This document shows, one piece after another, positions 48,969 to 64,000 of a stretch of DNA of 64,000 bases (within the stretch, counting starts at the first letter, position 1; every line of letters begins with the position of its first letter). Position numbers and translations under genes: made by a program. Under the pieces are notes generated by a model. The model searched no databases and was not told the DNA's origin. It was given only the letters and a program-made list of their open reading frames with translations. This DNA comes from an uncultured Acidimicrobiales bacterium (lineage in GTDB: Bacteria > Actinomycetota > Acidimicrobiia > Acidimicrobiales > Aldehydirespiratoraceae), in NCBI GenBank assembly GCA_958296055.1, contig CATQHS010000001.1, forward strand, positions 225,917 to 289,916, given 5' to 3'.

Positions 48969-49000
48969 GGCTCGACGGTATTGCCCCGAGGCCTGCGGGG

Positions 49001-49152
49001 CGTCCCGGCCGGCGGGTCCTGTCACGGCTGGCGGATTGCCCCAGCGGTTGGGTTGGTTGCGGGGCGTCCCGGCCGGCGGGTCCTGTCACGGGGGCGGTCG
49101 TCGCCGCAAGCGGCGCCGACGCTGACCCCCGTGCCACCCCCCGGCCTGGCGC
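49001..49152 (+). repeat. Palindromic repeat element, copy C (with duplicated GTCCCGGCCGGCGGGTCCTGTCACGG module)
   Basis: GTCCCGGCCGGCGGGTCCTGTCACGGGGGCGGTCGTCGCCGCAAGCGGCGCCGACGCTGACCCCCGTGCCACCCCCCGGCCTGGCGC. Confidence 0.85.
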
Positions 49153-49160
49153 GCTGCTCA

Positions 49161-49340
49161 CCAGTCAAGGACATTCACCGACGAGCGGTCAGCGGGGTCC
49201 CCGCGTGCTGACCCAGTCAAGCGACTGCTTGAAGCCAAGGACATTCACCGACGAGCGCTCGACGGGGTCCTCGCGTGCTGACCCAGTCAGGCGGCTGCTT
49301 GAGGCCAGGGGCATTCACCGACGAGTGGTCGCGGGAGGGG
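49161..49340. repeat. 70-bp x2.5 tandem repeat
   Basis: AAGGACATTCACCGACGAGCGGTC.GCGGGGTCC.CGCGTGCTGACCCAGTCA.GCG.CTGCTTGA.GCC units start at 49167, 49237 and 49307. Confidence 0.9.
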
Positions 49341-49364
49341 CTCGTGCCGTCCCGGCCGGGCTGG

Positions 49365-50897
49365 TCATGATCCGGCCCGAATCTTGGCCGGTGGTCTCGG
49401 GGCCGGGACGTAGCCCTGGACGCTGGCCCGGGTTCGGCTCGCAGGATCGCTCCTGTTGGAGAGAGCTACCGTTTCGACGCGGGAGTCACAGTTGTCCCGC
49501 AGGTTTCGGCCAGCGGGGTCGCTCCGGTTGGAGGGACTGCTTGAGCCAGCCGAGTCAAGGCTGGCGGGTTTTCGGGCGGTGCGGGTGGGCCGGGGCTGGT
49601 TGGGGGTGTGGGTGGCCCATTGGCCGTTGGGTGCTCGGGTGAGGGTGAGGTTGTGTTGGTGGATGTGGTGGTGGTGTCGGTTGCAGACCAGGGCGAGGTT
49701 GTCGATGTCGGTGGGGCCTTGGGCGGGGGCGGTCCAGGGGACGATGTGGTGGGCGTGGCAGTGGCTGGGGCTGGCCGCGCACAACACGCAGCCGCGGTCT
49801 CGGGCTATGAGCGTTCGCCATTGCTGGGGGGAGACGGTTCTGGTCTTGCGGCCGTGCCACAACGGCAGGCCGTCGCGGGAGAACAGGGCCCCGAACAGGT
49901 CGGCCTCGCAGGCCAGGCGCTCTAGTTCGGAGCGGGGGATGGGGCCGGTGCCGGGGATTTCGCAGCGGGCGTCGGGGTCGGCACCGGTGATGGCGTCAGT
50001 GTGGGCGATGACGAGGATCTGATTGCGCAGACTCGGGGGCTTGTCCCGGCCGGCGGGTCCTGTCACGGGGGCGGTCGTCGCCGCAAGCGGCGCCGACGCT
50101 GACCCCCGTGCCACCCCCCGACTTGGCGCACCGGGCTCCGGCCCGGGCTCTTGCTCGCCGAGCGTGTTGGCGCCGTTGTCGGGGTCTGGGGCGGGGGTGG
50201 GGGTTATTCCCAGGGCGGCGGTTAGGGCGTCGGCGTTGCGCTGGTCCCAGGTGCGGATCTGGTCGGGTTTGGCGTCTCGGCCGCCGTCGGCTCGATAGAG
50301 GCGGTTGGCGATGTCGTCGATTACGGCCCGGGCCTGGGCACCGGTGACGGGGTCCAAGCGGGTGCGGAAGTTGACCATGCCTTCGCCGTCGCACCAGGCC
50401 CGGTGGCTGCGCATGGCCCGCTGGCGGCGGAACTTGGCCTCACGGTCTGCCGCCGTTTGGTGACGGTGAGCCCAGTCGGCGACCTCCCGGCCGGCCAGAT
50501 CGGCGGGCAGCGCCTTTGCCTTCTCCAGCAGGCCCGCGTCGGTGTCCACCGTCTCGGCCGAGGTGGTCCGGGCGGCTTGCACCAAAGCGTCGGCGTGCTC
50601 GGCGGTGATATCGCCCTCGGCCAGGGCGCCGGCCACCGCAGGCATCTGGTCCAAAACCTCGGCCCGGCGCAGCCGCCGGCGAGCCTCGCGCTGAGAACAG
50701 CCCCCGACGTCACGCAACAACTCCATGCCCGCCGCCGGGTCGAAGGTCCGATCGGCGGCCGCAGTCAACAGGCGGGCCTCCAAAGCGTCCACCGCCGCCC
50801 GCACCCGCTTCGCTCCGGCCGCCGTCTCGTGCAACTCGGCCAGGCCCATGGTCGCCACATTCAAGGCGTTCAGTTGGGTGACGATCCGGTCGAACAC
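49365..50897 (-). CDS. HNH endonuclease with N-terminal DUF222 (REP13E12-type family)
   Basis: DUF222-like N-half and an HNH C-half (CHAHHIVPW...NLALVCNRHHHHIH). It carries repeat copy D in frame. Confidence 0.85.
   Translation of the reverse strand: MFDRIVTQLNALNVATMGLAELHETAAGAKRVRAAVDALEARLLTAAADRTFDPAAGMELLRDVGGCSQREARRRLRRAEVLDQMPAVAGALAEGDITAEHADALVQAARTTSAETVDTDAGLLEKAKALPADLAGREVADWAHRHQTAADREAKFRRQRAMRSHRAWCDGEGMVNFRTRLDPVTGAQARAVIDDIANRLYRADGGRDAKPDQIRTWDQRNADALTAALGITPTPAPDPDNGANTLGEQEPGPEPGAPSRGVARGSASAPLAATTAPVTGPAGRDKPPSLRNQILVIAHTDAITGADPDARCEIPGTGPIPRSELERLACEADLFGALFSRDGLPLWHGRKTRTVSPQQWRTLIARDRGCVLCAASPSHCHAHHIVPWTAPAQGPTDIDNLALVCNRHHHHIHQHNLTLTRAPNGQWATHTPNQPRPTRTARKPASLDSAGSSSPSNRSDPAGRNLRDNCDSRVETVALSNRSDPASRTRASVQGYVPAPRPPAKIRAGS
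50043..50131 (+). repeat. Palindromic repeat element, copy D (inside the HNH/DUF222 CDS)
   Basis: Nearly identical to copy C. It is translated in frame as ...SRGVARGSASAPLAATTAPVTGPAGRDKPP... Confidence 0.85.
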
Positions 50898-51093: not shown

Positions 51094-51891
51094 TTACAGG
51101 GGCAGAGACCGGCCCGCCTCGCGCAGACGGCGGCGGCGGTGCTGAGCGTCGGGCATGACGGCGGCCACGATCCGCCAGAACTCGGGCGAGTGGCTCCTGA
51201 CCGCCAGATGGGCCAGCTCGTGCACCACTATGTAATCGATCAGCGCCGGCTCGAGCATCACAGCCCGCCAGTTGAATCGCAGGGTGCCGTCGGGGGCGCA
51301 ACTCCCCCACCGCTGGCGCTGGTCGCGGATCAGCACCCGGGGAATGGGGCTCCGGCCCAACCGGGGCTGCCAGCGACCGACGCAGGCCGGCAGCCGCTCG
51401 CCAGCCCGGCCCCGATACCACCCCACCACAGCTCGGCGGACCCGCTCTCGGCGCTCGTCGCCTTCGAGGAACTGAGGCACGGCGATGCGGAAGCGCCAGT
51501 GGTCGAAGCGGACCTCCGGCGAGCGGACCCCGCCAACAGAAGGCTCGACGATCAGACGGACGTTGCGGCCCAGGTAGGGCAGCGTCTCGCCGCTGACGAA
51601 CCGCCGGGGCGTCGGGGCCAGGCTCGAAACCGATCCGGCCGCTCCCACGGCCCCGCCAGCCTCAGCCAGGCGGGCCAGTATCCACGCCGCCCGTTTCGTG
51701 ACGATGGCCCGCACCTCGGCACCAGATGTTGCTGACGGCGCGGCCACCTGCACTCCCCCGCCGTCCACGGTGATCTGGACCGTCTTGTGCCGCCGCGGGC
51801 TGCGGCGGATCTCGTACTCGATGGTGGTGGCGCCGAAACGGACGGAGTCCCGCTCAGCCACCGACCCGGCCGTCACCACTCGACCGGCCAC
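51094..51891 (-). CDS. M48-like zinc metallopeptidase, DUF45/YgjP family
   Basis: HELAHL zinc motif, WGSC, and the IEYEIRRSPRRHKTVQITV N-terminal pattern. It lies directly downstream of hsdR, a common arrangement. Confidence 0.8.
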   Translation of the reverse strand: MAGRVVTAGSVAERDSVRFGATTIEYEIRRSPRRHKTVQITVDGGGVQVAAPSATSGAEVRAIVTKRAAWILARLAEAGGAVGAAGSVSSLAPTPRRFVSGETLPYLGRNVRLIVEPSVGGVRSPEVRFDHWRFRIAVPQFLEGDERRERVRRAVVGWYRGRAGERLPACVGRWQPRLGRSPIPRVLIRDQRQRWGSCAPDGTLRFNWRAVMLEPALIDYIVVHELAHLAVRSHSPEFWRIVAAVMPDAQHRRRRLREAGRSLPL

Positions 51892-51963
51892 CCAGTTGCC
51901 GCCACCCGGCCGGTCACCCGGACCGCCCGTTCGCTCACCACCCGGCCGTCACCAGCCCGCTCC

Positions 51964-54900
51964 TCACCGGCTGCTTCTCCGGCGGGCCAGCTCCACCACC
52001 CGGCCAGCCAGCTCGTCCAACTGCTCCTCGGTGTGGGCGCCCGCGGGCCTGAGCTGGCGCTTGACGTCCCGGCGCATCTGGCGCTGGACCTCCAGGTTCG
52101 ACTGCCAGTCCACGACGGCGCGATGGCGCTCCACCGCCGACTCGATCCTCAGAGCGAACCGCTTGGCCTCCTCGTCAAGACGCACCCGGCCTCCAGACCC
52201 GGCCCCAGCCTCCCCCTCCGAGAGCCCGGCCTCCCCCGCTCCGGCCGAACCGGCCGAACCGGTCGAAGAAGGCCCCGGCTCCTCCAGTCGCCTGTCGAGC
52301 AGCTCGTAGACGGCGAAGGCCAGCGGCGACAGGCCGTGCTCGGCGGCGAAGTCGTCGAGGCGCAGGATCTGCTGGGCCACCGCGGCCAGGCGGTGACAGG
52401 CCTCGGCCGAGTCGATCAGCCGGTTGCGCAGGTCCTCGATGACCCGGGCGAGCTGGTCCGAGAGCCGCTCGAAGAACGCCGGGTTCTCGCCCAAGCGCTC
52501 GTGGATCTGAGCCCGGATGGCGTGTTCCATCACCGAGGCCCTGGCCTCGTCGCCGGGCAGGCTGGCGATCTTCCGCTCGAAGTCGGCGTCGAGGATGGAT
52601 ATCGGCTTCATCATCTCCCGCACCCGGGCGCTGATGCGCTCATCGATCAGCTTCTTGACCTTCGCCCCGATCTCGGTCCAGTCGGCGGCGGCGTCCTCGC
52701 GCAGGAACTGGGCCCGGACGCAGGCCCGTATCTCGGTGAGGCGAGCCAGCCGGTCCCGGTAGTCCAAGGCCCGGGGGTCGGGCAGGAAGCGGTCCATGAG
52801 GATCGAGAACTGGCGGTAGTCGGCGTTGAACCGCTCGAAGAGATCGACCTTGAAGGCACCGTCGGTGGAGGCGTCGGGGGCGAAGACGGCCACGCACGCC
52901 CACGTGTCGCCGAAGTCGCGACCCCCGAACCAGGACTCGGCCGCGGCGGCGGCCGACTCGATGACCTCGGCCGGGTCCTCTTCCATCTCCCACATGGCCC
53001 CCTGGACATCCGACTGGTCGAAGGCGGACAGCACCTCCTCCAAGTCGCGGGAGACGCCGCAGTAGTCCACCACCAAGCCGAAGGTCTTCTCGGTGGCCAC
53101 GCCATCGAACACGTGGGAGAACCGGCGGTTCACCCGGGCGATGGCCTGGAGCAGCCCGTGCTCCCGCAACCCTCGGTCGAGGTAGAGCACCTGCTCCACC
53201 GGGGCGTCGAACCCGGTGAGCAGCATGTCCACCACCACCAGCACCTCGGGGTCGCCCTCGGGATCGACGAAGGCCTCGGTGACCAGGCTCTGGTTCAGCT
53301 CACGGGCCGTATTGAACTCGCGCCCGTCTTGGGGGGTGGTGGTGATGATCGGGAAGGCGCTCACCCCGAAGTTGATCAGGTGACCGGCGTAGCGCACCGC
53401 CGCGGCCCGGCTGGGGGCCACCACCTGGGCCTTGAACCCGTTGGGACGCACCTTGGCCTTGAAGTGCTCGGCGATGTCGAAGGCGATCATCTCAATCCGG
53501 CGCTCGGCCTCGGCCACGGTCTCCTTGTTCCCGTAGCGGCGGCGCAGCCGGGCCCGCACCTCCTCGGGCTGGTCGCTGAACAGGGCATCGAAGAGCTGGT
53601 CGAGGGTGTCGGGGCCTTCGACGGCCAGATCGGGGAGCCGGGCCTCGTAATAGATGGGCACAGTCGCCCCGTCGGCCACCGACTGGGGGATGGTGTAGGA
53701 GTCGATGAGGGGCCCGAACCGGCGCATGGTGCTGCGCCGAAACCCCTTGTCGATGGGGGTGCCGGTGAAGCCGAGCAGCGTGGCGTTGGGCAGCGCTTTG
53801 GACATGCGGGCCCCGAGCGTGCCGTACTGGGTGCGGTGGGCCTCGTCCACCATGACGATCACGTTCTCGGAGGGGTCGAGCACGTCCAGTTCCCCCTCGG
53901 GCGCGGTCAGGGCCTCCTCGAACTTCTGCACCGTCGTCATCACCGTGCGGCCCGCGCCGGTGGTGAGCAGTAGGCGCAGGTCGCCGGTGCTCGACGCCCG
54001 CTCGGGGGCGGGGAAGCCGCAGCGCTGGAAGGTGGCGGTGATCTGACGGTCGAGCTGGGTCCGGTCGGTCACCATCACGATGGTCGGGTTGTCGAGGCCG
54101 GGCTGGCGGCGCAGCTTGCCGGCCAGCCACAACATGGTCAGCGACTTGCCGGAGCCCTGGGTATGCCACACCACGCCGCCCCGCTCGGCGGGGGTGCGGC
54201 CCCTCAGGACCCGCTCCAGGGCGGCCCCGACGGCCCGATGCTGGTGGTAGCGGGGCAGCTTCTTCACCACTTTGCCCTGCTCGGGCTCGTATACGACGTG
54301 GTCGCGCATAACGTCGAGCAGAACGACCGGGTCCAGCAGCCCGACGATGAGCCGGTTCTGGCCCTCGGGCTCGACCCCAAAGCGCTGCCGCACCTCGTCC
54401 TCGGAGTAGGGCAGCACCGACTTCCACCCGACATAGGCATTCTCCGGCGCGCCGAGCCCGGCGAAGACGGCGTCGGTCCCGCAGTGGGCCACGCTCATCA
54501 GATTCCAGGCGAACAACTCGGGCGCACCCCGGCCGTGCCATTCCGGCGACGACTCCTGATAGCGCCGGAGTTGGTTCACCGCCTTGGTCTTCCACCGGTC
54601 GTGCAGCGCCAGCGACTTGGCTTCCATAACCACCAGCGGTATGCCGTTGACGAACAGCACCAAGTCGGGGATGACGGACCGCTCGTCGTCGTCGGGATCA
54701 CCGCGCCCGCTGCCGCTGAGGACCCGGAACTGGGTGGTGACCACGAAATCGTTGAGGCCGCTGTGGGGGTGGTCGAAATCGAAGAAGCGGACCGTGCGGG
54801 TCCGCCGCCCCTTGGGGGTGTCGGTGTCGAGGGGCATCCCGTAGGTGAGGTATTCGTGGACAATCTGGTTGCGGGCCATCCCGACCGCGTCGACATGCCC

Positions 54901-55116
54901 AAGGTCGAAGATCACCCGCTCGGCCTGGCTCTCAGTCATCCACTCGTTGAGCCGCAGCAGCGCCCGCGTCAGCCGACCCCGGAGCAGCACATCCCGTTCG
55001 TCCCCGCGCTCAGCCGCCAGGGCGTCCCGGTGGACATACGTCCATCCCAGCTTCTCCAGCAGCCGCCGGGCTGGTCCCTCAGCGTGGTCGAACTCGTTGA
55101 GCTTGGTGGAAGTCAT
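51964..55116 (-). CDS. hsdR: Type I restriction endonuclease subunit R
   Basis: 1050 aa with an N-terminal nuclease region (PDLVLFVNGIPLVVMEAK), SF2 helicase motifs (TQGSGKS, DEAH, TGTP) and a C-terminal domain. Confidence 0.95.
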   Translation of the reverse strand: MTSTKLNEFDHAEGPARRLLEKLGWTYVHRDALAAERGDERDVLLRGRLTRALLRLNEWMTESQAERVIFDLGHVDAVGMARNQIVHEYLTYGMPLDTDTPKGRRTRTVRFFDFDHPHSGLNDFVVTTQFRVLSGSGRGDPDDDERSVIPDLVLFVNGIPLVVMEAKSLALHDRWKTKAVNQLRRYQESSPEWHGRGAPELFAWNLMSVAHCGTDAVFAGLGAPENAYVGWKSVLPYSEDEVRQRFGVEPEGQNRLIVGLLDPVVLLDVMRDHVVYEPEQGKVVKKLPRYHQHRAVGAALERVLRGRTPAERGGVVWHTQGSGKSLTMLWLAGKLRRQPGLDNPTIVMVTDRTQLDRQITATFQRCGFPAPERASSTGDLRLLLTTGAGRTVMTTVQKFEEALTAPEGELDVLDPSENVIVMVDEAHRTQYGTLGARMSKALPNATLLGFTGTPIDKGFRRSTMRRFGPLIDSYTIPQSVADGATVPIYYEARLPDLAVEGPDTLDQLFDALFSDQPEEVRARLRRRYGNKETVAEAERRIEMIAFDIAEHFKAKVRPNGFKAQVVAPSRAAAVRYAGHLINFGVSAFPIITTTPQDGREFNTARELNQSLVTEAFVDPEGDPEVLVVVDMLLTGFDAPVEQVLYLDRGLREHGLLQAIARVNRRFSHVFDGVATEKTFGLVVDYCGVSRDLEEVLSAFDQSDVQGAMWEMEEDPAEVIESAAAAAESWFGGRDFGDTWACVAVFAPDASTDGAFKVDLFERFNADYRQFSILMDRFLPDPRALDYRDRLARLTEIRACVRAQFLREDAAADWTEIGAKVKKLIDERISARVREMMKPISILDADFERKIASLPGDEARASVMEHAIRAQIHERLGENPAFFERLSDQLARVIEDLRNRLIDSAEACHRLAAVAQQILRLDDFAAEHGLSPLAFAVYELLDRRLEEPGPSSTGSAGSAGAGEAGLSEGEAGAGSGGRVRLDEEAKRFALRIESAVERHRAVVDWQSNLEVQRQMRRDVKRQLRPAGAHTEEQLDELAGRVVELARRRSSR

Positions 55117-55530
55117 GAGGCTTGGATCAATTCCAATTCGGGTATTCCTTGGAAATCTCGGTCAGGAAGCAAAGCGGACTATTCAACAAAAGTGCCGTTA
55201 GCAGCAATCCACGCGTCCGCTTATGCGGTCTAAAGCTTTGATACCTAGCTAAAGCGTCGGAGCTATCCGACCGAGTCGATAGAATTAATTCAACCTCAAG
55301 CGATCCAGAAGAAGATGAACACTGCCGAAGCCTACTTAAAATTTGCTTCCAATTCAAAGAGTCGCCCTTTTGAAAATTATGGCAAATCAGATCATAAATC
55401 ATTAGACAAACCGCTCTCTGAATATGACCGCAAGTTGTTTGTAAATCAACTACCCTGTCCATACTAAGGTAAGGTCCCTTCAAATACTACAAGTAACTGA
55501 CTGGTCATCATGCTCCTATCGTTGAAGTAT

Positions 55531-56448
55531 TTATATTACAGGCGTTTCAAAATCTCCAACCGTGTGCCAGTCCGTACCATCCAAGTTTACTGGACAACCA
55601 GCAGCTTGAAGACGTTGTGCCAATTCCTGACGTCGTTGGGAAGTATTGTCAAGTCTTACAGTATGACGACCCGCAATATCGCTAAAAGGTCTTAGGACAC
55701 CAAGTTCTACAAGTATAGTACGATCTTCTGATTGACCCATTGCCATTCCTGCTTCAAACAATACATTAGGGCGAGCTTGACCACTTAATTCTATCTCATA
55801 TGTCAGTTCATTTTTTGATCTAAGATTTTCTCGAAGACGAGCCTCATCATCCGGTGTGAAGAGAACCAAAATGGCATGCGCTTCACTAAAGGCTGCGGTT
55901 AAAATTTCCCAAATATGGGGGCTAACTTTACCAGTCAGTTTAATAGCTTCTATCCATTCTAGCGGTTGAAGATCTATAGCCCTTAGAAAGTTGAATAGTT
56001 CATCTCTAGCTGATATATTTCTACCGTGTATTACAAATATTTTTTGAGTATTTTTGGCTGGCATAGGCAACATATTATTAGAGTCATAACGATCAATTTC
56101 ATATCCGGGTGGACCCAAAATAAAATCATCAGTAACATCTTTACCTTCCTTAGCTATAATCCAATCTATAGACGGGCCTGGCAATACATTTGACCATCTG
56201 CTTTGCTTGATATTTTCAGCCAGCCCATAGTAATTCTTAGAAGACTCTTTGGTAGTACTTATCCACATTCTTTCAATATCATCTAGCTGAATCGTCTTTC
56301 CATTAACTACTATTGATTCTCCACGACGATAAGGGGTAAGAACGCGCTCATTTAATCTGCCCTCAGTTAGATCGAGTTTAACTTCACCGTAAGATCTACT
56401 AGATTTCAAGCTTATACAAATATGATAGTACTTCACAATTATCTCCAT
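55531..56448 (-). CDS. TIR-like domain protein (PF10137 / CAP12-PycTIR type) with uncharacterised ~135-aa N-terminal domain
   Basis: The C-terminal half matches the family pattern: IFVIHGRN, HAILVLFTPDDEA, QARPNVLFEAGMAMG (candidate catalytic Glu) and LRPFSDIAGRHTV. The gene is AT-rich. Its ATG lies 2 nt after the hsdS stop. Confidence 0.75.
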   Translation of the reverse strand: MEIIVKYYHICISLKSSRSYGEVKLDLTEGRLNERVLTPYRRGESIVVNGKTIQLDDIERMWISTTKESSKNYYGLAENIKQSRWSNVLPGPSIDWIIAKEGKDVTDDFILGPPGYEIDRYDSNNMLPMPAKNTQKIFVIHGRNISARDELFNFLRAIDLQPLEWIEAIKLTGKVSPHIWEILTAAFSEAHAILVLFTPDDEARLRENLRSKNELTYEIELSGQARPNVLFEAGMAMGQSEDRTILVELGVLRPFSDIAGRHTVRLDNTSQRRQELAQRLQAAGCPVNLDGTDWHTVGDFETPVI

Positions 56449-56450
56449 AA

Positions 56451-57704
56451 TCAGCGGATAATTCCGGGAAGTAGCTGGTTAAGTAAGGAAGTTTTGAGAG
56501 AAATTATTGCGTTCTGCTCCTGTTTCATCCATACCAATGACTCTAAGATTGTACCAATTACTGACGTAATAATCTGCTGTTCCGGCAGAGTTGGGAGAGG
56601 AATTGGTAGAGTTGAATACTCCGAAGCATTAATGTTTGGTTGAGCGCCGACTCGTTTCATTGATGCAATCCAACGGCGATAATAACTCGAATGCGTGTAT
56701 AATGATACGAATTCTGGAAGTGCAATTTCAGGGTTGGGACGAAACCGAATCAGATAACCTGCATATACACAATGACCATCTTCAGATTGATAAAGGTACG
56801 TTCTCCCTACACTACCACTTCTAGCAAATAATAGATCACCCATACGCAGCTTATGCTCTGAATCATTTGATATCTTTACAGATCTAATTCCCTCAGTACG
56901 TAACCGTCCATCACCAGTTATGTCAGTGATCCGAACATATCGTGGTAAGATTGGGTCGAACGGACATGCTCGTAATCCAACACCGTATTTAGGTGGATCA
57001 CATATTTCTCCCAAGCTGACAACTTGCCAGTCCGCTGGAATAGTTCCTATACTCTGATATGTTCGCCGTTCGGTGTGCCAACCGGGGACACCACAAGTGA
57101 ATAGTGCATGTAGCATAGCATTCCGTAAATTCTTGGTGGCAATTATAACTGCTTCAGAGTGTCGAATAGCTTCGTCAATTGAATCCAATACGATTGCAAT
57201 ACTTGCTTGTTCTGAGAGTGGCGGAAGTAGTACCATACTTCTCTTCAAATGTGCGCTAGTAATAGAAGGTACAGCACTTACATTAGCTAACTGGGCTAGA
57301 TCAATAGATTCAAACCAAGCGTGAAGGAACCTTGTATCACACTTTTGGGTATCTGATACTGTAACGCCTATCATGTTATTATCGATAATAGTGGGCACCG
57401 TTAATGCTCTCTTCTTGTTGGTAGCTATAGCAGCCCCTACCTTGGGAAATACAATTGTACCAGGCGCAAAGACAGTTGCTTTGAGTTCTTCCACATCTTT
57501 CTCATCAACATAGTTGTTTGCGTATTGAATGTAAGTTTCGTTACCTTGCAGAGTCATATCAGAAACCTTGATGAATGGATACTCGCCACTACGTCGCCCC
57601 TGTCTGTTCATCGGGAATCCAGTACCATTTCGTACTTTTGCTACGTCTCCGATGCGCATAATCTGCCAACCATCGGGCACGGTTTCTATAGTTGGTCCAA
57701 CCAT
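56451..57704 (-). CDS. hsdS: Type I R-M specificity subunit (full length, two target-recognition domains)
   Basis: 417 aa with two TRDs separated by conserved helices (PPLSEQASIAIVLDSIDEAI and LPEQQIITSVIGTILESL). Very AT-rich relative to its surroundings. Confidence 0.9.
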   Translation of the reverse strand: MVGPTIETVPDGWQIMRIGDVAKVRNGTGFPMNRQGRRSGEYPFIKVSDMTLQGNETYIQYANNYVDEKDVEELKATVFAPGTIVFPKVGAAIATNKKRALTVPTIIDNNMIGVTVSDTQKCDTRFLHAWFESIDLAQLANVSAVPSITSAHLKRSMVLLPPLSEQASIAIVLDSIDEAIRHSEAVIIATKNLRNAMLHALFTCGVPGWHTERRTYQSIGTIPADWQVVSLGEICDPPKYGVGLRACPFDPILPRYVRITDITGDGRLRTEGIRSVKISNDSEHKLRMGDLLFARSGSVGRTYLYQSEDGHCVYAGYLIRFRPNPEIALPEFVSLYTHSSYYRRWIASMKRVGAQPNINASEYSTLPIPLPTLPEQQIITSVIGTILESLVWMKQEQNAIISLKTSLLNQLLPGIIR

Positions 57705-57710
57705 CTGATC

Positions 57711-59252
57711 TCACTCCTGGTCTCTGGAGAAGCCCATATTGGTCAGAAGCGCGTCCATCTTCGATACTGCTTCGTCTCGACGGTGCTCCGCCTCCCGTAA
57801 CTGGGCTAGAGCATCCTCGACGCTTAGCACCTCCACTGGTTCGGTTGTGTCAACGTAGCGGCTGATGTTCAGATTGAAACCGTTGTCGGCTATCTCCTCC
57901 AAATCAACTACATGCGCGAACCGCTCTGCCTCTTCGAAGGTCTGATACGCCTCGACGATCTTGGCGATGTGTTCGCGGTCTAGGAAGTTCTGCGCCTTGT
58001 CCTGGCGGAAGCATCCATCCTGGGCAGCGTTCACGAACAGCACCTTGCCCCGGCGGTCCGCCGGCTTGGCCCGGTTCAGCACGCAGATGGTCACCGGGAT
58101 GCTGGAACCGAAGAACAGGTTAGGGGCTAGGCCGATGATCGCCTCAAACAGATCGGCTTCCAAGATACCTTCGCGGATCTTGCCCTCGGCACCGCCGCGG
58201 AACAAGATGCCGTGGGGCATCACCACGCCCACCATGCCCTTGGAATTCGTCACCGCCAGCATGTGCATCAGGAAGGCGAGGTCGCCCTTGGTGCGGGGGG
58301 GGATGGCGCCATAGCGGTCAAAGCGGTGGTGGGGATCGTTAGGGGCGAAGTCGTGGCCCCAGTTCTTCAGGCTGAACGGCGGATTGGCGATCACCCGGTC
58401 ATAGGAGAGAAGCCGGTCCGTGGCCGGGTCCACCAGGCGCGGTTCGGCAATCACATCGCCAGCCTCCAGGCGGGCGGCCCGCAGGTCGTGCAGCAACAGA
58501 TTGAGTTTGCCCGCGGCCAGCGTACCCAGGTTGCGCTCTTGGCCGTGCAGCGCCAGGTTGCGGCGGTCGCCGCCCTGCTCGTGTACATATTGCGCGGTGT
58601 AGATGAGCATCCCGCCGGACCCGGCCGTGGGATCGCAGATCCGCATCCCCTCACGGGGCTGCAACAGTTCGACGATGAGACGAACCACCGAGCGGGGCGT
58701 GTAGAACTCCCCGCCCTTCTTGCCAGCGTCGTCGGCGAACTGGTTGATCAAGTACTCGTAGGCATCGCCCAGCACGTTGCCGGCACCGTCCCCGCCGTCG
58801 CTCAGATTGTCATCGCGCAGGTTCAGGGCGCTGAAGTGGGTGAGCAGGCTGCGGATGATGCGCTCCCGGTTGGCCGGGCTGCCCAGCTTCGACTCATCGT
58901 TCCAGTTGGTGCCCGACAGCACACCGTCGAGCCTCGGAGCGTTGGCCGTCTCCACTTCGTGGCCAGCGATGTTGAGGGCGTCGCCGGGGTTCCTCGGGGC
59001 TCCGGCCAGCACGGACCAGCGACCCGACTCGGGGACGAAAAACTCGTGCTCGTCGGGGTCCGACAACGCCACCTCGCGGGGGACGCCGGAGGCCACCGCG
59101 CTCTCCACCTCCTCGTCGAACCGGTCCGAGAGCCGCTTCAGGAAAAGGATGGAGAAGATGTAGTTCTTGTAGTCGGCCGCGTCGATCTGGCCGCGCAGGA
59201 TGTCGGCGGCTTGCCAAAGCTTCGACTGGAGCTCCTGGCTGGTGAGCGGCAC
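57711..59252 (-). CDS. hsdM: Type I R-M DNA methyltransferase subunit M
   Basis: HsdM N-terminal domain (LWQAADILRGQIDAADYKNYIFSILFLKRLSD), motif I DPTAGSGGML and motif IV NPPF. Confidence 0.95.
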   Translation of the reverse strand: MPLTSQELQSKLWQAADILRGQIDAADYKNYIFSILFLKRLSDRFDEEVESAVASGVPREVALSDPDEHEFFVPESGRWSVLAGAPRNPGDALNIAGHEVETANAPRLDGVLSGTNWNDESKLGSPANRERIIRSLLTHFSALNLRDDNLSDGGDGAGNVLGDAYEYLINQFADDAGKKGGEFYTPRSVVRLIVELLQPREGMRICDPTAGSGGMLIYTAQYVHEQGGDRRNLALHGQERNLGTLAAGKLNLLLHDLRAARLEAGDVIAEPRLVDPATDRLLSYDRVIANPPFSLKNWGHDFAPNDPHHRFDRYGAIPPRTKGDLAFLMHMLAVTNSKGMVGVVMPHGILFRGGAEGKIREGILEADLFEAIIGLAPNLFFGSSIPVTICVLNRAKPADRRGKVLFVNAAQDGCFRQDKAQNFLDREHIAKIVEAYQTFEEAERFAHVVDLEEIADNGFNLNISRYVDTTEPVEVLSVEDALAQLREAEHRRDEAVSKMDALLTNMGFSRDQE

Positions 59253-59255
59253 GTT

Positions 59256-59870
59256 TCAACCTCGGGTTTCTTGCAGGGCCTTGTAGCCGATTTCGTGGAT
59301 GAGTGAGTCGCGAAGCACCTCACGCCGGAGCTGGGCGGCCTTGACCGCAGCCCCGTACGCCGCCTCCGATGCCTCCACCAACTCCGCCGCTAGATGCAGC
59401 TCGCGGGCGGAAGGCATCGGAACCTCAACCTCTCGGAGGCTATTAGCCGATAGCGACGTGATGGTGGAACTCACCGTCAGCCGCCGGGCCAACTGGGCCC
59501 GCCCGTGGGCCGAGGAGAGGAACCACCAGAGCCAGTGCCCCAGGCCCGAGTCCGGGCGCTTCGGCCGGACCACCAGCAGCGTCACCCCAGCCACCGTCCT
59601 GGACACGCCCGGCGGCACCAGCGCAACCTTGGTTGAGTCGGCCCGGGCCGTCACCAGCACATCGTGGGGCCGGAGCAGGTGGCGCTCGGTGCGGACGTTG
59701 CGGTCGACCTCGATTTCCCGGAGGCCGTCGAGATTGAGCCAGCCGCCGCCTTCCGGCAGGTTGCTGCTCTCCACCAGTCGCAGCGCCCACTCCCCCGCCC
59801 GAGCCCCGGCCCCGCGCCCCGCCCGACCCAGCCCCTGGTAGACATCCGCCACGTCAGCCACCTGGTTCAT
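59256..59870 (-). CDS. hsdS: Half-size Type I specificity subunit (single TRD plus conserved helix)
   Basis: 204 aa and GC-rich, with HsdS-like architecture (one TRD, then PMPSARELHLAAELVEASEAAYGAAVKAAQLRREVL). It ends 3 nt before the hsdM start. Confidence 0.7.
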   Translation of the reverse strand: MNQVADVADVYQGLGRAGRGAGARAGEWALRLVESSNLPEGGGWLNLDGLREIEVDRNVRTERHLLRPHDVLVTARADSTKVALVPPGVSRTVAGVTLLVVRPKRPDSGLGHWLWWFLSSAHGRAQLARRLTVSSTITSLSANSLREVEVPMPSARELHLAAELVEASEAAYGAAVKAAQLRREVLRDSLIHEIGYKALQETRG

Positions 59871-60028
59871 TACGATGACCTTACAGTGCGATCATAAAAA
59901 AATCAACACTTAGAAGTGCTAGTTAGTGCACGGTCCACCTTCAGGTCTATCAGGCGAGGTAAGCTGTGCCGTTGGCGATCTCAACTGTGGAGATCCAAAC
60001 GAATCATCATCAAAAAGGAGCATTTTCA

Positions 60029-61009
60029 ATGGCTGACCTGATTGTCCAGTTCGCCAAGGCAAAGTCAAACGTAGAAGCGTCGGAGGAAGACAAATCCAAT
60101 GCCGCGGAAGCTCATAAGGCTGTGCGCGCCTGCCTCGAACATGAAGAAACGTTGAGATCCTACGGTATTGACACGGTACTAATTGGCAGTTACAAACGCC
60201 ATGTGGCCATCCGTCAAGTCAAAGATGTAGATGTGTTGTCCAAGCTTCCCCAGTTACCAGCCGATGTAGAGCCAAGAACGCTTTTGGACTATTTCTTAAA
60301 AGTCCTGAAGAACGCCTATGGGTCTGATCGAGTAGAGGCTCAGAGTCGTTCGGTCAAGATTGAGTTCCCTGACTTTGACCTTGCAGTGGATGTAGTACCT
60401 GCTCGTCCTTGCCAAAGTTCTAACTACATTGAGATTCCTGATCGCGTTGAAGGCTGGCAGGAGACTAACCCAGAACGGCTTACAGAGCTAACAACAGCGA
60501 TGAACAACTCTTACGACGACGAGTACGTACCATTAGTCAAGCTGATTCGTCAGACGCGTCGACACAATCTCAACAAGCGTCCAGGTGGTTTTTACTTTGA
60601 AATCCTCACGTATCATGCAGCAGCCAATGGTCTAGACCGTAGAAGCACTGGTGCGCTTTTTACTTCCGCCTTACGCGACATCGCAGAACAGCTCAGATTA
60701 GCTGCCGCGGGCCATGAAGTGCAAGATCCGACGATGCCAGGTGCTAGTATTTCAATTCGAGTCACCGATGTTCAAATGCAAACAGCCGTAACAAAGTTTA
60801 CTGACCTCGCATCCAAGGCTGAAGCGGCCCTTGAGGCTGATATTTGTCCGGCAGCAAAAGCATTTCAAAAGATCTTCGGCCGCAACGACGATAACGAATT
60901 GGTCTTTGAAATGCCAGCAGCATGCAATGAGGACGGAACCTCTAAGTCTCTGATCGCCATCTCACCTGGAGATCGCACCATCCCAGCAGGCAATCGCCGT
61001 TTCGCATGA
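60029..61009 (+). CDS. CBASS cGAS/DncV-like nucleotidyltransferase (CD-NTase, SMODS domain)
   Basis: Pol-beta NTase motifs GSYKRHVAI...VKDVDVL and the third acidic residue in FDLAVDVVPA. RBS AAAAGGAG lies upstream of ATG 60029. There is a 4-nt overlap with cap2. The C-terminus ends ...RRFA. Confidence 0.8.
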   Translation: MADLIVQFAKAKSNVEASEEDKSNAAEAHKAVRACLEHEETLRSYGIDTVLIGSYKRHVAIRQVKDVDVLSKLPQLPADVEPRTLLDYFLKVLKNAYGSDRVEAQSRSVKIEFPDFDLAVDVVPARPCQSSNYIEIPDRVEGWQETNPERLTELTTAMNNSYDDEYVPLVKLIRQTRRHNLNKRPGGFYFEILTYHAAANGLDRRSTGALFTSALRDIAEQLRLAAAGHEVQDPTMPGASISIRVTDVQMQTAVTKFTDLASKAEAALEADICPAAKAFQKIFGRNDDNELVFEMPAACNEDGTSKSLIAISPGDRTIPAGNRRFA

Positions 61010-62490
61010 TGAGTATCCTGAGCGACAGTGTAGCAGCGGAGCGTGAGGCTTTCATTGAAGGACTCTGCACTCGTGGGTTCAAATTACTTAATGACTGTCG
61101 AACTCTCCTGGGTGCTATCAACATTAACGGGCAACCCATAGAGCATGAAATCGCCCTTACCGCAGAGTTTCCCATTACAAAGCCTCGGGTATCAGTCCCA
61201 AATGGGGAGGGTAGCCTATCTTGGCACAGGGAGTCTGATGGAACTTTATGTTTATGGTCTGATGACGAGGCATCTGATCTTCCATGGAGCGACGCTGCTG
61301 CCATGATTGATCGTATCTCTCAATGGCACGCCAAGGATGCCGCAGGCTGGTCGAATGATCCTCCCGATCTCGACTTGGAAAGGTATTGGACATCCGGCTG
61401 TAATCCTATATTAGTAGTTCACCCAGATCTCGAACCTCTCACTGGCAAAAAGTGCAGAGCCAGAAAATATCTAAAGAAGTCATTCGAGGTGTGGGATGTT
61501 GGGCCAGGAAAAGTCTACAAGAACCGTAAACGTTGGGCAGGAGTATCCGTAGTCAACGCGGGAGAGTTGAAGCAGCCCGTCCGTAATTTTGATGAACTCG
61601 CGGATCGGCTCGGAGCCGAAGAGTCTGAGGAGCTAAGTGCTGCAATTGAAAACGGCGATGTCAGTGTAGTGGTGGTACGCTATCGCAGACAAGAACACGA
61701 AGCAGCCGTGAGCCTTATCGCAGAAGATCAAAATCCTAATCGCCTCACGGCTGTTAGAACTGCTCACACGGGCGAGTCAACCTTACGCCTACGAGCCGGA
61801 CTAGACGCCAACGTGCTTGCAAATAAGAGGATCGCACTAGTCGGGCTCGGGGCGGTCGGATCTCTGTTGGCAGAGATGCTCGTCCGTTCAGGTGTGGGCG
61901 CGATGACACTCATAGACGGCGATATTATTAGACCTGGTAATTGTATTAGGCATGTAGCCACTTTAAACGATGTTGGTATCAATAAAGCTGAAGTCGTCAA
62001 AGATAAGATCATAACCGCGGGACTGATTTCCAAGGAGGACGCTAATGGCAAGCTCACGGTACAGCCCCAGATGTTACAAGACGCAGTAACCACTGAAAAG
62101 ATCTTCAACGAACATGACCTTATTATTGACGCCACTGGTGACAATCCAGTAACGGCGTTGGTATGTACCGCTAGCCGGATTTTAAACAGGCCCTTGATCA
62201 CGGTCTGCTTACAACGAGGGGGAACAGTCGCACGCGTTGACCGCTTTCCGCTGCTCCACGGCGAAACCCACAAAGACGCACTACCTCCGGCTGAATCCCA
62301 TATCGAGCTTCGTGAGGGGGGGTGCGGAGACCCTATATCCCCTGCACCGCCATGGGCCTGTGCGGCTGCCGCAGCCCGAGCCGCGGGAATGGCAGCCGAT
62401 CTGCTCGTTGGACGTGATCTGTACCCTCCAACCGTCATCGACGAGTTGATCAAGTTGCCAGATAGCTTGCCAACGGCAAGCAGTCTGTGA
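61006..62490 (+). CDS. cap2: CBASS Cap2 (fused E2-like and E1/ThiF-like ubiquitin-transferase-like enzyme)
   Basis: N-terminal E2-like Cys context (HRESDGTLCLW). The ThiF Rossmann motif is LVGLGAVGSLLAEMLVRSGVGAMTLIDGD. The C-terminal Cys region is GGCGDPISP. Confidence 0.8.
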   Translation: MMSILSDSVAAEREAFIEGLCTRGFKLLNDCRTLLGAININGQPIEHEIALTAEFPITKPRVSVPNGEGSLSWHRESDGTLCLWSDDEASDLPWSDAAAMIDRISQWHAKDAAGWSNDPPDLDLERYWTSGCNPILVVHPDLEPLTGKKCRARKYLKKSFEVWDVGPGKVYKNRKRWAGVSVVNAGELKQPVRNFDELADRLGAEESEELSAAIENGDVSVVVVRYRRQEHEAAVSLIAEDQNPNRLTAVRTAHTGESTLRLRAGLDANVLANKRIALVGLGAVGSLLAEMLVRSGVGAMTLIDGDIIRPGNCIRHVATLNDVGINKAEVVKDKIITAGLISKEDANGKLTVQPQMLQDAVTTEKIFNEHDLIIDATGDNPVTALVCTASRILNRPLITVCLQRGGTVARVDRFPLLHGETHKDALPPAESHIELREGGCGDPISPAPPWACAAAAARAAGMAADLLVGRDLYPPTVIDELIKLPDSLPTASSL

Positions 62491-62978
62491 TGAAGTACCA
62501 AACCCGTCAAATCGTCGTGGAGCCCTCTAGCTGGTTGGAAGCTACAACAACAGCTTCACAAACTAAGTTAGAAATTGGTGGCATCTTGGCGGGCTGGCGT
62601 CATGACACAGGTATTTATATATCGAAATTTGTCGAAGTGCCAGACATGCGCGCGACTCGGGCCACCTACCTGCGACGACATGCATTCGCCTCTGAACGCT
62701 TAAAGAGTCTAGTCGAAACTCTGCCGGAAGGTTCACCAGTCGGTTATGTCGGTGAGTGGCACACCCATCCAGAGAATCAAGGTCCTAGCCGAACCGACCG
62801 TAACCAACTAAAGCGTATTTCAAAGAAAGTTAAAGGGGATATAGCTCTCATCGTACTCGTTTATGATCAGAATACTGGCCAATGGATGCCCGCAGGGATG
62901 TGTGCTAACTCTGGCGTAGTGCATACAGCCGTCATCAGGATCGATAACTCATTGGCAATGCAGATAAAATCAGTATAA
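62487..62978 (+). CDS. cap3: CBASS Cap3 (JAB/JAMM isopeptidase)
   Basis: JAMM motif EIGG...GEWHTHPENQGPSRTD (HxH-x7-S-xx-D), overlapping the cap2 stop. Confidence 0.8.
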   Translation: MMKYQTRQIVVEPSSWLEATTTASQTKLEIGGILAGWRHDTGIYISKFVEVPDMRATRATYLRRHAFASERLKSLVETLPEGSPVGYVGEWHTHPENQGPSRTDRNQLKRISKKVKGDIALIVLVYDQNTGQWMPAGMCANSGVVHTAVIRIDNSLAMQIKSV

Positions 62979-62992
62979 TCTATGTAATCCAT

Positions 62993-64000
62993 ATGACCGA
63001 TATCTCTAGCCATAGTCAAAGCGCTTCGCGGATTGCGGGCGACTACTATCAACACCTCATTGCCTGGAATGAAGCACTTGAAGCCCTGCGATCAGACAAC
63101 GATGTACTCGCTGTTACTGTTGAGCATCCAGATGCTGGAAACGTAGACGACATCGTTGTGCACAGGCGCACCGGTTCAACCCTCTTCATTCAAGTCAAAC
63201 ATGCAGTAGATGCCAGAACACCTGTTGGATACAAATGGTTACTCGGTTTAAGATCTTCAAACTCCAGAGCAACAAGCCTCCTGCAAAAATTCTATAGAAG
63301 TTGGATTCATCTTTCAAAATCGGACGAACGCCCCGAACTCCGGCTTATAACAGACCGAGAAATTGATCCTAATGACCCGGTTATGAGCCGAATTGATCGC
63401 ATGACAGGTTTACTAGTGCCTAATATCCGCCACGGCCGTGCGGCCGAAGGCCGAGCCCAATGGGCACAACACTTAGAAATTGACGAATGTGAACTCTTAG
63501 AATTTCTAGAGAATCTACGATTTGAGACCGGTCGACCAGTGAGAGCAGAAGAGCAACGCGCCAGGACGCTGATGTGGGCTATGGGTTTTAACAACGACCA
63601 ACGGGCTATAGACGCAGCTATCGGATTAGTGAGAGAGTGGGTTCTGCTAAGAGAGCGCCAACTCCAACCCGATATACTTCATAATTGGGCACGAAACCAC
63701 ATCGGACAGCAAACCGACCAAGGTGCAGTTGTCATCATAGATGCTATCGATTATGACCCTCACCCGGAAGACGCCGATGAACACATCTGCTTCGTTGACG
63801 ACTATCTAGGAAACGAGGCTTCCGAGAGGCGACAACTTCGCGACCCAACCCAATGGGACCGAATTGGTCAAGAGATTACACAAGCCTCAGATAGATTGCG
63901 CAATCGCGGCGTACGGCGTGTCATAGCCCGTGGAGCAATGCGCTTACCAGCCTGGTTTACTGTTGGCGCAGCTTTTCGCCATGTTCGTGGCTTTGAGATA
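62993..64000 (+). CDS. CBASS effector, Cap4-like (DUF4297 PD-(D/E)xK nuclease N-domain; probable SAVED sensor domain begins near window end); 3' end outside the window
   Basis: Absent from the ORF track because no stop occurs before the window end. The frame is open from ATG 62993 for 336 codons. The sequence MTDISSHSQSASRIAGDYYQHLIAWNEALEAL...VTVEHPDAGNVDDIVVH...LFIQVKH resembles the DUF4297 nuclease motif. Confidence 0.65.
   Translation, partial: MTDISSHSQSASRIAGDYYQHLIAWNEALEALRSDNDVLAVTVEHPDAGNVDDIVVHRRTGSTLFIQVKHAVDARTPVGYKWLLGLRSSNSRATSLLQKFYRSWIHLSKSDERPELRLITDREIDPNDPVMSRIDRMTGLLVPNIRHGRAAEGRAQWAQHLEIDECELLEFLENLRFETGRPVRAEEQRARTLMWAMGFNNDQRAIDAAIGLVREWVLLRERQLQPDILHNWARNHIGQQTDQGAVVIIDAIDYDPHPEDADEHICFVDDYLGNEASERRQLRDPTQWDRIGQEITQASDRLRNRGVRRVIARGAMRLPAWFTVGAAFRHVRGFEI

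Follow-up and report, generated by a model that had tools for sequence, protein, structure and literature searches.

How a block of defence genes with three distinct base compositions came to occupy a single chromosomal site is the question raised by the right end of a 64,000-nucleotide (nt) stretch of DNA from an uncultured Acidimicrobiales bacterium (assembly GCA_958296055.1, contig CATQHS010000001.1, positions 225,917 to 289,916), the whole of which is referred to here as the window. At this end, a type I restriction-modification (RM) operon carrying an AT-rich interval between two of its subunit genes adjoins a divergently transcribed cyclic-oligonucleotide-based anti-phage signaling system (CBASS). 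With a probability of about 0.8, we interpret the locus as a chromosomal defence island of ~15.4 kb (~49.0-64.45 kb) with three compositional and evolutionary layers, whose parts appear to have been gained, swapped, and lost independently. The island lies between LigT and a flank of a 287-amino-acid (aa) gene, GNAT, and cinA in a high-GC host of the Ca. Aldehydirespiratoraceae type. Its first layer is a GC-rich RM backbone comprising a DUF222/HNH gene, a DUF45 gene, hsdR, hsdM, and a half-size hsdS-like gene (halfS), found at the same site in RM-bearing relatives. The second is an AT-rich cassette occupying the interval between hsdM and hsdR (hereafter the slot), in which hsdS is always present, usually accompanied by an additional gene for defence or a toxin, here one encoding a TIR protein. 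The third is a type II CBASS of intermediate GC content inserted divergently upstream of halfS.

Base composition delimits these layers sharply. We used 500-nt windows over positions 1-49000 as the baseline (mean GC 0.710, standard deviation 0.046, n = 97), this host part having a GC content of 0.71 overall. The block from DUF45 to hsdR is indistinct from it (GC 0.698, z -0.2), and the hsdM-halfS block lies only slightly lower (0.655, z -1.3). Positions 55117-57710, which extend from the hsdR start to the hsdM stop and contain the TIR gene and hsdS, drop to 0.415 (z -6.5), with all five 500-nt windows falling within 0.38-0.44, and the CBASS region at 59871-64000 has a GC content of 0.502 (z -4.6). 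GC content at third codon positions (GC3) sorts the genes into the same three classes more sharply: 0.84-0.96 for the DUF45 gene (0.84-0.85), hsdR (0.92), hsdM (0.84), halfS (0.85), and the housekeeping flank genes; 0.26 and 0.33 for the TIR gene and hsdS; and 0.43-0.50 for the four CBASS genes. The edges of the compositional blocks match gene edges within ~20 nt, and within hsdM the GC3 falls from ~0.9 to 0.82, 0.76, and 0.66 over the last 450 nt in the direction of the slot. The slot and the subunit genes on either side of it differ by ~28 GC points inside one operon. A first-pass annotation of this DNA had proposed block-wise composition from hand counts of single 60-nt lines (44/60, 19/60, and 25/60 G+C); these counts are exact on recount, and the windowed GC and GC3 values bear out the blocks and rule out a uniform composition.

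To place these layers in an evolutionary context, we compared the window with ten close-relative loci, one identified through an HsdM scan (L001) and the others through homologs of the TIR, HD, and Cap2 proteins. All are Acidimicrobiia-type metagenome-assembled genomes (MAGs) or metagenome scaffolds, and they share a housekeeping context of recA, SelR, a luciferase-like monooxygenase, an HD protein, and LigT. A scan of metagenome_contigs with the HD protein returned only relatives of at most 66% identity over the full length (one partial match reached 75%), with no shared synteny. The comparison with syntenic regions that had been suggested as a way to find an empty site yielded one: in L164, whose HD protein is 79% identical, LigT is followed by 58 nt and then by a PIN gene, a 288-aa gene, GNAT, and cinA-NUDIX, and the island is absent. 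A second relative, L165, keeps the DUF222 and DUF45 genes and only the C-terminal 486 aa of HsdR, which indicates that its RM system has been deleted. Eight relatives retain the backbone in the order DUF222/HNH-DUF45-hsdR-[slot]-hsdM-halfS, and in seven of these (L001, L081, L082, L167, L168, L170, and L172) the backbone is 81-90% identical to that of the window at the nucleotide level.

Within this common frame the slot contents differ. The window, L081, and L082 carry hsdS together with a TIR gene; L001 carries a half-hsdS and an OLD gene; L168 has OLD and hsdS; L167 has hsdS alone; L170 pairs hsdS with a 311-aa PDC-M14A-like gene; and L172 pairs it with a 559-aa gene of no known function. 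The alignment of the window with L001 is interrupted at 55134-57697, and the two limits fall no more than 20 nt from the hsdR start and from the hsdM stop, respectively. L167 and L168 share 99.3-100% identity along a 17.6-kb stretch that ends exactly at the hsdR start codon, beyond which they diverge, and L081 and L082 are 98.8% identical over 14.3 kb, yet one has the CBASS where the other has different genes. The slot has a GC content of 0.39-0.49 in all eight RM-bearing relatives, whatever its cargo. Between the window and L081, third-position identity is 0.50-0.60 for the TIR and CBASS genes versus 0.71-0.84 for backbone and housekeeping genes, and the two TIR genes are 77% identical, both with a GC3 of 0.26-0.30.

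The locus therefore combines variable content among close relatives with atypical composition, and it is missing from the syntenic site of one relative, as expected of a genomic island. Replacement or loss affects the slot cassette and the CBASS each as a whole, with breakpoints within ~20-50 nt of gene ends, and turnover takes place at two internal sites, the hsdM-hsdR slot and the site upstream of halfS. Replacement rather than loss alone is indicated because non-homologous cargos of similar size share the slot, a target-recognition domain (TRD) of hsdS has been swapped, a PIN gene has left a scar, and L082 holds alternative genes. The claim of at least three layers nested at one locus is thus strengthened by relatives that differ exactly at the compositional boundaries. 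A gene order conserved throughout with no empty-site variant, which would have spoken against it, was not seen; the order varies and L164 is island-free.

The cassette in the window consists of two genes and a non-coding spacer. A full-length hsdS with two TRDs lies at 56451-57704 on the minus strand (GC 0.43); Pfam Methylase_S matches it in two stretches, and the PADLOC Specificity_I profile (5.3e-49) covers residues 13-410 of its 417-aa product, the extent expected of a two-TRD HsdS. The product is 53% identical in amino acid sequence to that of L081. Between the two genomes, nucleotide identity is 75% over the TIR gene and the C-terminal half of hsdS, and no DNA homology is found over 57189-57663, which corresponds to the N-terminal TRD. 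The TIR gene, at 55531-56448 on the minus strand (GC 0.39), is a candidate defence gene encoding a CAP12/Pycsar-type TIR protein (PF10137, 8.6e-25). Five hidden Markov models of the PADLOC family PDC-S35 match the protein, with E-values from 3.6e-21 to 1.7e-11, placing it in that family. It comprises an N-terminal domain (~aa 1-120) of no assigned family and a TIR domain, in which the residues F231-E232-A233-G234, part of an LFEAG motif, are invariant among 42 homologs. An AlphaFold model (pLDDT 80.6) returned TIR domains as the best fold matches for the C-terminal domain; a fold search with the confidently modelled N-terminal domain gave no convincing structural match.

Homologs of this protein occupy the same slot in eight other loci of the first 80 recovered by the HsdM scan described below, as well as in L081 and L082. 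PDC-S35-type TIR proteins come in two architectures, of ~300 aa and ~415 aa. An extra C-terminal domain of ~110 aa is present in many slot TIR proteins (L010, L012, L030, L047, L054, and L058), and the window protein and that of L069 are without it. A literature search found no paper mentioning PDC-S35.

Between the TIR gene and hsdR is an AT-rich non-coding spacer (55117-55530, minus strand) whose hsdR-proximal part, 55117-55220, is the remnant of a VapC-like PIN pseudogene. A tblastn search with the PIN protein of L001 aligns to the spacer at 59% identity over 34 aa with an in-frame stop; the remnant corresponds to the last 34 codons of a PIN gene, abuts the hsdR start, and reads as the scar of an earlier cargo. 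At the distal island edge of L001 (6291-6751) and L081 (about 314-924), an intact PIN gene is followed by ~60 nt of an hsdR 5′ end, a mirror image of the remnant next to the genuine hsdR in the window. A 118-aa open reading frame (ORF) at 55127-55483 was considered as a gene and TIR partner and rejected, having no Pfam or PADLOC match, no homologs, and an odd composition; it was likewise rejected as a split C-terminal domain of the longer TIR relatives, showing no homology to their extension.

The backbone genes were identified with Pfam and PADLOC profiles and their catalytic motifs were checked. All gene identities proposed in the first-pass annotation hold, and the catalytic motifs are intact. 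On the minus strand, 51094-51891 encodes a YgjP/DUF45 zinc metallopeptidase (PF01863, 9.4e-52) with a HELAH (HExxH) motif. The restriction subunit gene hsdR follows at 51964-55116 (minus strand, GC 0.69), matching Pfam HSDR_N, SWI2_SNF2, ResIII, T1R_D3, and T1RH-like_C and PADLOC REase_I (8e-130). Its GSGKS, DEAH, and D...EAK motifs are intact and represent both the PD-(D/E)xK nuclease and the SF2 translocase of a type I HsdR, and the gene is 89-90% identical at the nucleotide level to those of L001, L081, and L082. The N6-adenine methyltransferase gene hsdM lies beyond the slot at 57711-59252 (minus strand, GC 0.64; Pfam N6_Mtase, 3e-94, and HsdM_N), with the NPPF motif of a type I HsdM at residue 290. 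The genes are closely packed, with 3 nt from the halfS stop to the hsdM start, 6 nt from the hsdM stop to the hsdS start, and 2 nt between hsdS and the TIR gene.

The most upstream gene of this operon, halfS (59256-59870, minus strand, GC 0.70), encodes a half-size HsdS-like protein of ~200 aa with a single TRD and a helix (PADLOC Specificity_I, 5e-10), which aligns to both halves of the window HsdS. A profile built from 50 halfS homologs matches the HsdS structures 5ybb and 3okg (1e-9) and the half-S homodimer Esub1 (8vsr, 2.6e-8), and the 49 other aligned sequences are 44-86% identical to the window copy in amino acid sequence. The gene is intact in 56 of 58 loci and sits directly upstream of hsdM in this RM family. 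The first-pass annotation had named it a half-hsdS; its half-size, HsdS-like identity is upheld by the PADLOC and structure matches, and the gene, intact in 56 of 58 loci and matching HsdS structures and Esub1, is a conserved component of the RM family rather than debris. We regard the protein as a putative HsdM-binding specificity subunit.

The third layer begins in the divergent intergenic region between halfS and the CD-NTase gene (59871-60028), where homology to the CBASS-free relatives ends, at 59860 for L001 and at 59917 for L082. All four CBASS genes are on the plus strand. The first, at 59966-61009 (GC 0.49), encodes a cGAS/DncV-like nucleotidyltransferase (CD-NTase; Pfam SMODS, 3.6e-19; PADLOC Cyclase, 5.1e-119); its true start is probably near 60029, since the PADLOC cyclase profile begins at residue 22 of the ORF. 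The GSY...DVD...DFD motifs of the CD-NTase active site are present, and the closest solved structures are 9sa4, Pseudomonas aeruginosa CdnD (6p8u), and Enterobacter cloacae CdnD (7to3). Cap2, an E1/E2-like ThiF protein (61006-62490, GC 0.52; Pfam ThiF, 1.6e-17; PADLOC E1-E2, 3.8e-127), has named homologs in a small subfamily that is mostly found in Acidimicrobiia. Cap3, a JAB/JAMM deconjugating peptidase (62487-62978, GC 0.48; Pfam Prok-JAB, 4.4e-9; PADLOC JAB), carries the JAMM motif HTHPENQGPSRTD (HxH...S..D), and the pairing of Cap2 with Cap3 marks the system as type II. The last gene, at 62993-64000 and running past the window end, encodes a Cap4-like effector in which a PD-(D/E)xK nuclease with a D...QVK motif is joined to a SAVED domain, the combination of sensor and killing domain expected of a CBASS effector (PADLOC SAVED_PDDEXK, 2.8e-95, residues 1-336 of 483; Effector/Endonuclease, 7.8e-93). 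Judged from its orthologs in L081, L170, L172, and L174, which are 481-485 aa long and contain a Pfam SAVED domain (77% aa identity for L081), ~145-150 codons of cap4 lie beyond the window.

Four of the six genomes in which this side is readable, namely the window, L081, L170, and L172, have the CBASS at one and the same place, transcribed away from halfS; the Cap2 proteins of these three relatives are 71-75% identical to that of the window and their CBASS GC content is 0.49-0.50. It is absent from L001 and L082, and in L082 5.3 kb of unrelated genes lie where L081 has the CBASS, the break falling 32 nt upstream of halfS. The same four genes (57% identity, GC 0.60) occur in L174, a more distant Ca. 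Poriferisocius genome, in another defence cluster at a different chromosomal site, which indicates that the CBASS moves as a unit. Across the wider RM family, CBASS is the only system seen upstream of halfS, in two to three of ~45 loci, and a general, family-wide defence hotspot at this position was rejected on that count. Unrelated type II CBASS operons adjoin halfS/hsdM in three Chloroflexota loci (L028, 6727-9311; L039, 8266-9306; L073, 7319-9904); their proteins are 27-37% identical to those of the window, and two of the three operons are divergent as in the window.

In L170 and L172, ~20 nt separate the end of cap4 from a 287-aa gene, the homolog of the 288-aa gene in L164, and GNAT comes next. 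By analogy, the island in the source genome should end near 64.45 kb, just past the window, consistent with the earlier expectation that the right boundary lies outside it. Beyond the right flank of the island in L170 (15811-21290), we observed RelB/YafQ and, together with a DUF4276 protein, a HEC-01A-like ABC ATPase; the source genome may likewise have further defence genes past 64 kb.

The left boundary was originally placed at ~51.1 kb, with the DUF45 gene. Synteny between the window and the empty site of L164 instead ends at position 48983, at the start of LigT, and the island begins just past it, at ~49.0 kb. The repeats and the DUF222/HNH gene, taken earlier as flanking sequence, are therefore inside the island. 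The repeat zone at this edge (49026-49364), delimited by repeat searches and by synteny with L164, includes a 70-bp tandem array (49166-49335; 2.4 copies, 88% matches) with no counterpart in L001, L081, or L082 and thus specific to the source genome. Two perfect 34-nt direct repeats are found at 48994-49027 and 49058-49091. A dispersed GC-rich repeat of ~75-110 nt, which folds into a single long hairpin (-59 kcal/mol, z -2.3), occurs at 15507-15609 (plus strand), 15844-15965 (minus strand), 49020-49152, and 50036-50146 of the window, with further copies in L001 (19324-19431) and L081 (16915-17025 and 17900-18015). The copy at 50036-50146 sits within the ORF of the DUF222/HNH endonuclease-like gene (49365-50897, minus strand; Pfam DUF222, 1.3e-23; HNH, 1e-3), where the Pfam match is ~43 residues longer than the profile, and may be an in-frame insertion of an element resembling a miniature inverted-repeat transposable element or a repetitive extragenic palindrome.

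The DUF222/HNH gene is found at the same place in L001, L081, L082, L165, L167, and L168 and is absent from L164; the left part that bears it is kept in every RM-bearing relative, the L170 and L172 loci stopping short of this side. Of the earlier proposal that the left edge is a recombination hot spot, the array, the repeats, and the DUF222/HNH gene all exist, but turnover does not take place there: it maps to the two internal sites, and nothing demonstrates that the repeats drive it. Elsewhere in the window, a direct repeat of ~370 nt with 77% identity is present at 10613-10982 and 13011-13383, ~2.4 kb apart, and a second stretch of lower GC content (0.53-0.62, positions 501-3750) codes for a sugar-type ABC transporter with one periplasmic binding protein and two BPD_transp_2 permeases.

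The HsdM scan, limited to one genome per species, extends the backbone well beyond this clade. It recovered 80 loci, all from MAGs, in Dehalococcoidia/SAR202, Caldilineaceae, and other Chloroflexota as well as in Acidimicrobiia such as Ca. Aldehydirespiratoraceae and Ca. Poriferisodalis, with HsdM proteins 69-92% identical in amino acid sequence across the two phyla. In each of these loci, L001-L080, hsdM lies at about 10001-11530. Many of these MAGs are from sponge-type communities. The order halfS, hsdM, variable slot, hsdR, DUF45 is found in 70 loci, and DUF45 begins at most 131 nt downstream of the hsdR stop in 67 of them. A literature search for a link between DUF45 and hsdR returned irrelevant matches only (to DUF450), and the association rests on the 67/70 count; COG1451 was reportedly tied to type I RM systems in a 2011 defence-island analysis by Makarova and colleagues. 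Slots range from 0.9 to 7 kb and contain hsdS in every one of the 70 loci, in four of them alone. The accompanying cargo includes DUF2442, PIN, HicB, HepT, TIR/PDC-S35 (eight loci), HEPN/Ymh, PDC-S19, PDC-S31, OLD-type ATPase-nucleases, SIR2, AbiJ, HORMA, and many unknowns.

This distribution suggests that the whole halfS-hsdM-slot-hsdR-DUF45 module has been transferred across phyla, and the RM core (halfS, hsdM, hsdR, and DUF45, without DUF222/HNH) appears to circulate as a unit in MAGs of both Chloroflexota and Acidimicrobiia. What spreads between phyla is probably the entire RM module rather than single cassettes. The first-pass annotation had described hsdR, hsdM, and half-hsdS as GC-rich like the host; this is accurate for composition but does not extend to a native origin, as the backbone is common to Chloroflexota. 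The hsdM 3′ and hsdR 5′ ends have ~0.70-0.74 nucleotide identity across phyla, no better than the rest of these genes, and the idea that they are specially conserved recombination arms was rejected.

The AT-richness of the slot also holds at this scale. Slot GC content lies at least 0.05 below that of both flanking genes in 52 of 70 loci, with a mean of 0.565 versus 0.64 for the flanks. Homologous TIR and OLD genes have a GC content of 0.50-0.56 in Chloroflexota hosts (GC 0.55-0.66), and the highest-GC hosts, Acidimicrobiia at ~0.70, carry the most AT-rich slot cargo (0.39-0.45), a trend opposite to that expected from amelioration. These patterns argue against the AT-rich slot being one single recent import.

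Family knowledge allows a provisional account of how the island would work. HsdM2-HsdS would methylate host DNA at a bipartite site, and addition of HsdR would produce a complex that cuts unmodified DNA. HalfS probably forms an HsdS-like dimer, which would give the same M and R subunits a second, fixed, and symmetric specificity. The TIR protein, co-transcribed with the operon, would sense infection through its N-terminal domain and probably degrade NAD+, leading to abortive infection. With Cap2 priming the CD-NTase and Cap3 restraining it, this enzyme would make a cyclic oligonucleotide that activates the SAVED-nuclease to degrade DNA. As for the turnover itself, related strains would replace cassettes without an integrase, through homologous recombination within the conserved flanking genes hsdM, hsdR, and halfS. 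Homologous recombination is the most economical mechanism because the breakpoints hug conserved gene ends and no integrase, transposase, tRNA, or long flanking repeat accompanies them in the window or in the relatives that cover both flanks.

Other histories could in principle yield the same locus. One is that the mosaic is an artefact of assembly or binning, in which low-GC fragments were joined to a high-GC contig within repeated RM genes. The source and all its relatives are MAGs or metagenome scaffolds, and RM genes that are 70-90% conserved across taxa make mis-joining possible in principle. The succession of GC-rich hsdR, AT-rich slot, and GC-rich hsdM nevertheless recurs in eight further independent assemblies from different samples, several of them on Mb-scale contigs; neither the reading frames nor the short gene spacings are disrupted at the junctions; the GC3 of hsdM grades into the slot; and a type I system requires an hsdS, the sole full copy of which is in the AT-rich block. 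We find an artefact scarcely credible on this evidence. Nor does the island resemble a site-specific integrative element whose integrase and att sites lie past the window, even though its right end is outside and a DUF222/HNH gene and repeats mark its left edge. Neither the window island nor the full islands and both flanks of L081, L170, L172, and L001 contain an integrase, a transposase, or a tRNA; a tRNA scan of the window and an Rfam search of 44-64 kb gave no match; and no long direct repeats flank the island within the window. The recombinase, tRNA/att target, and flanking repeats of an integrase-type element are thus missing from the window and from the relatives' islands alike, the right flank follows directly after cap4 in relatives, and breakpoints vary between genomes, which makes such an element very improbable. 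Scans of viral_contigs with Cap2 and the TIR protein gave no relatives either, and there is consequently no evidence for a phage vector.

A single acquisition deserves somewhat more weight but is still unlikely. If the 15-kb island had arrived en bloc, already mosaic, and its relatives differed by later deletions, the presence of the backbone and some slot cassette in all RM-bearing relatives would follow, L165 shows that large deletions do occur, and the common position of the CBASS in the window, L081, L170, and L172 could reflect one insertion with loss in L001 and L082. Deletion cannot produce slots that hold non-homologous genes of similar size (TIR, OLD, and the 311-aa and 559-aa genes), however, nor the 5.3 kb of different genes at the CBASS place in L082, the replaced N-terminal TRD of hsdS, or the PIN scar beneath the present cassette, and the cassettes are more diverged than the backbone. 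A further possibility bears on the cause of the composition alone and is consistent with an exchange of cassettes: low GC content may be no mark of foreign origin, the cassettes being long-term residents of the clade's gene pool and kept AT-rich by selection, with Lsr2-type silencing, a need to hold down the expression of toxic effectors, or the demands of diversifying TRDs as possible causes. The AT-rich slot of every RM-bearing relative, its depression below the flanks in both phyla, the similarly low GC3 of the diverged window and L081 TIR genes, and the occurrence of the most AT-rich cargo in the highest-GC hosts all fit this idea. Holding a pool at 0.40 GC in genomes of 0.70 GC would nevertheless demand strong selection against mutational bias, and continuous import from low-GC donors yields the same pattern; the viral contigs, which lack close homologs, do not indicate a vector either way. 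We regard selection as a tentative explanation at best.

Several observations also weigh against parts of the interpretation we favour, that of a layered island with independently exchanged parts. The recombination mechanism is deduced from breakpoints, and since the gene ends are no more conserved than the remainder of the genes across phyla, homologous exchange is plausible only among close relatives. The 58-nt spacer of L164 has a weak resemblance to the hsdR 5′ end, matched or exceeded in score by 45 of 2000 shuffles, and the empty site of this relative may have arisen by deletion and not be naive. The duplicated junction of PIN 3′ and hsdR 5′ ends in L001 and L081 records older, repeated rearrangements of the locus. 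Recent import followed by amelioration appears unable to account for the slot composition, because all eight RM-bearing relatives have an AT-rich slot and homologous cargo is GC-richer in the lower-GC Chloroflexota. Every relative compared is a MAG or metagenome scaffold, the right boundary of the window island is placed from relatives, and the functions of the RM, TIR, and CBASS parts are predictions from family knowledge, with PDC-S35 a candidate family.

The individual ingredients of this island are all of known kinds: defence islands, genes embedded in RM operons, type II CBASS, and RM enrichment in sponge symbionts. PrrC, in EcoprrI, is a defence gene embedded in a type I RM operon. Such embedding is an established pattern and the source of the PDC families, including PDC-S35 (Payne et al. 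2024, bioRxiv 10.1101/2024.01.29.577857), and TgvAB in V. cholerae VPI-2 is a tested example. The window resembles these cases in having an extra gene between RM subunit genes, in the operon orientation, and in the match of its TIR protein to PDC-S35, and loci of the same RM family carry OLD, PDC-S19, PDC-S31, HEPN, and other cargo in the same slot. It differs in that embedding is seen here as a polymorphism among very close strains at one site and in the ~28-point GC gap that persists across the clade; the activity of PDC-S35 is, moreover, a prediction. The CBASS shares its four gene types and active-site motifs with the CdnD-Cap2-Cap3-Cap4 operon of Enterobacter cloacae, the CdnD of which is among the best structure matches, but the window CD-NTase is only weakly similar to solved ones (E 1e-21 at best), and the Cap4-like effector has no sequence match in the PDB.

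Half-size specificity subunits have precedents as well, truncated HsdS of EcoDXXI and EcoR124I acting as dimers. HalfS, with ~200 aa, one TRD-like domain and a helix, and profile matches to HsdS structures and Esub1, is of this kind. Esub1 of S. pyogenes is a homodimer (PDB 8VSQ/8VSR) encoded away from RM genes that did not clearly bind HsdM (PMC11754733); halfS, in contrast, immediately precedes hsdM, shares its operon with a full-length hsdS, and is conserved in two phyla. The presence of more than one hsdS-like gene per locus and the diversification of specificity by hsdS recombination recall the switching multi-hsdS type I systems (Atack et al. 2020, PMC7394358). Unlike in phase-variable or shufflon systems, halfS and hsdS are on the same strand, no recombinase is present, no inverted repeat joins 56451-57704 and 59256-59870, and the variation is between genomes, not within a cell. 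In overall layout the locus resembles the immigration control region of E. coli (hsd-mcr-mrr), a fixed site bounded by core genes with variable defence content and no obvious mobile element; here the host and the flanks (LigT and cinA, next to recA) are different, and the hotspot is nested within the RM operon.

Taken together, these comparisons make the locus a clear but not unprecedented example of defence-gene turnover, the value of which lies in a well-resolved series of variants at one site, in an RM family with conserved half-HsdS and DUF45, in the lasting GC gap within an operon, and in the unannotated slot genes. The series amounts to a natural time course, with an empty site, an RM-deleted site, at least five slot cargos, and the CBASS present or absent. 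Some of the changes are found between strains whose flanks are 99-100% identical, which makes it possible to measure in metagenomes how fast and in what way defence genes are exchanged. More speculatively, the hsdM-hsdR interval may serve as a recombinase-free, integron-like site of cassette exchange that uses the subunit genes as homology arms: strains of sponge-type symbionts would swap a specificity gene and an effector from an AT-rich pool kept by selection, for example through silencing in high-GC Actinomycetota, and halfS would preserve self-methylation through its fixed second specificity during hsdS exchange. The type I RM family defined by half-HsdS, HsdM, slot, HsdR, and DUF45 is common to Acidimicrobiia and Chloroflexota MAGs, and its many functionally unannotated slot genes are defence candidates by position. 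That embedded cargo keeps an AT-rich composition in a GC-rich host, 28 GC points from the flanking genes of its own operon, calls for an explanation, for which there may be two accounts: a repeated draw from an external low-GC pool, or an old and diverse pool kept AT-rich by selection. Current concepts of defence-gene embedding and turnover are left unchanged by this island and are extended to a new host group of the sponge-symbiont type, RM enrichment being known from sponge symbionts (e.g., PMC5649159 and PMC5099237).

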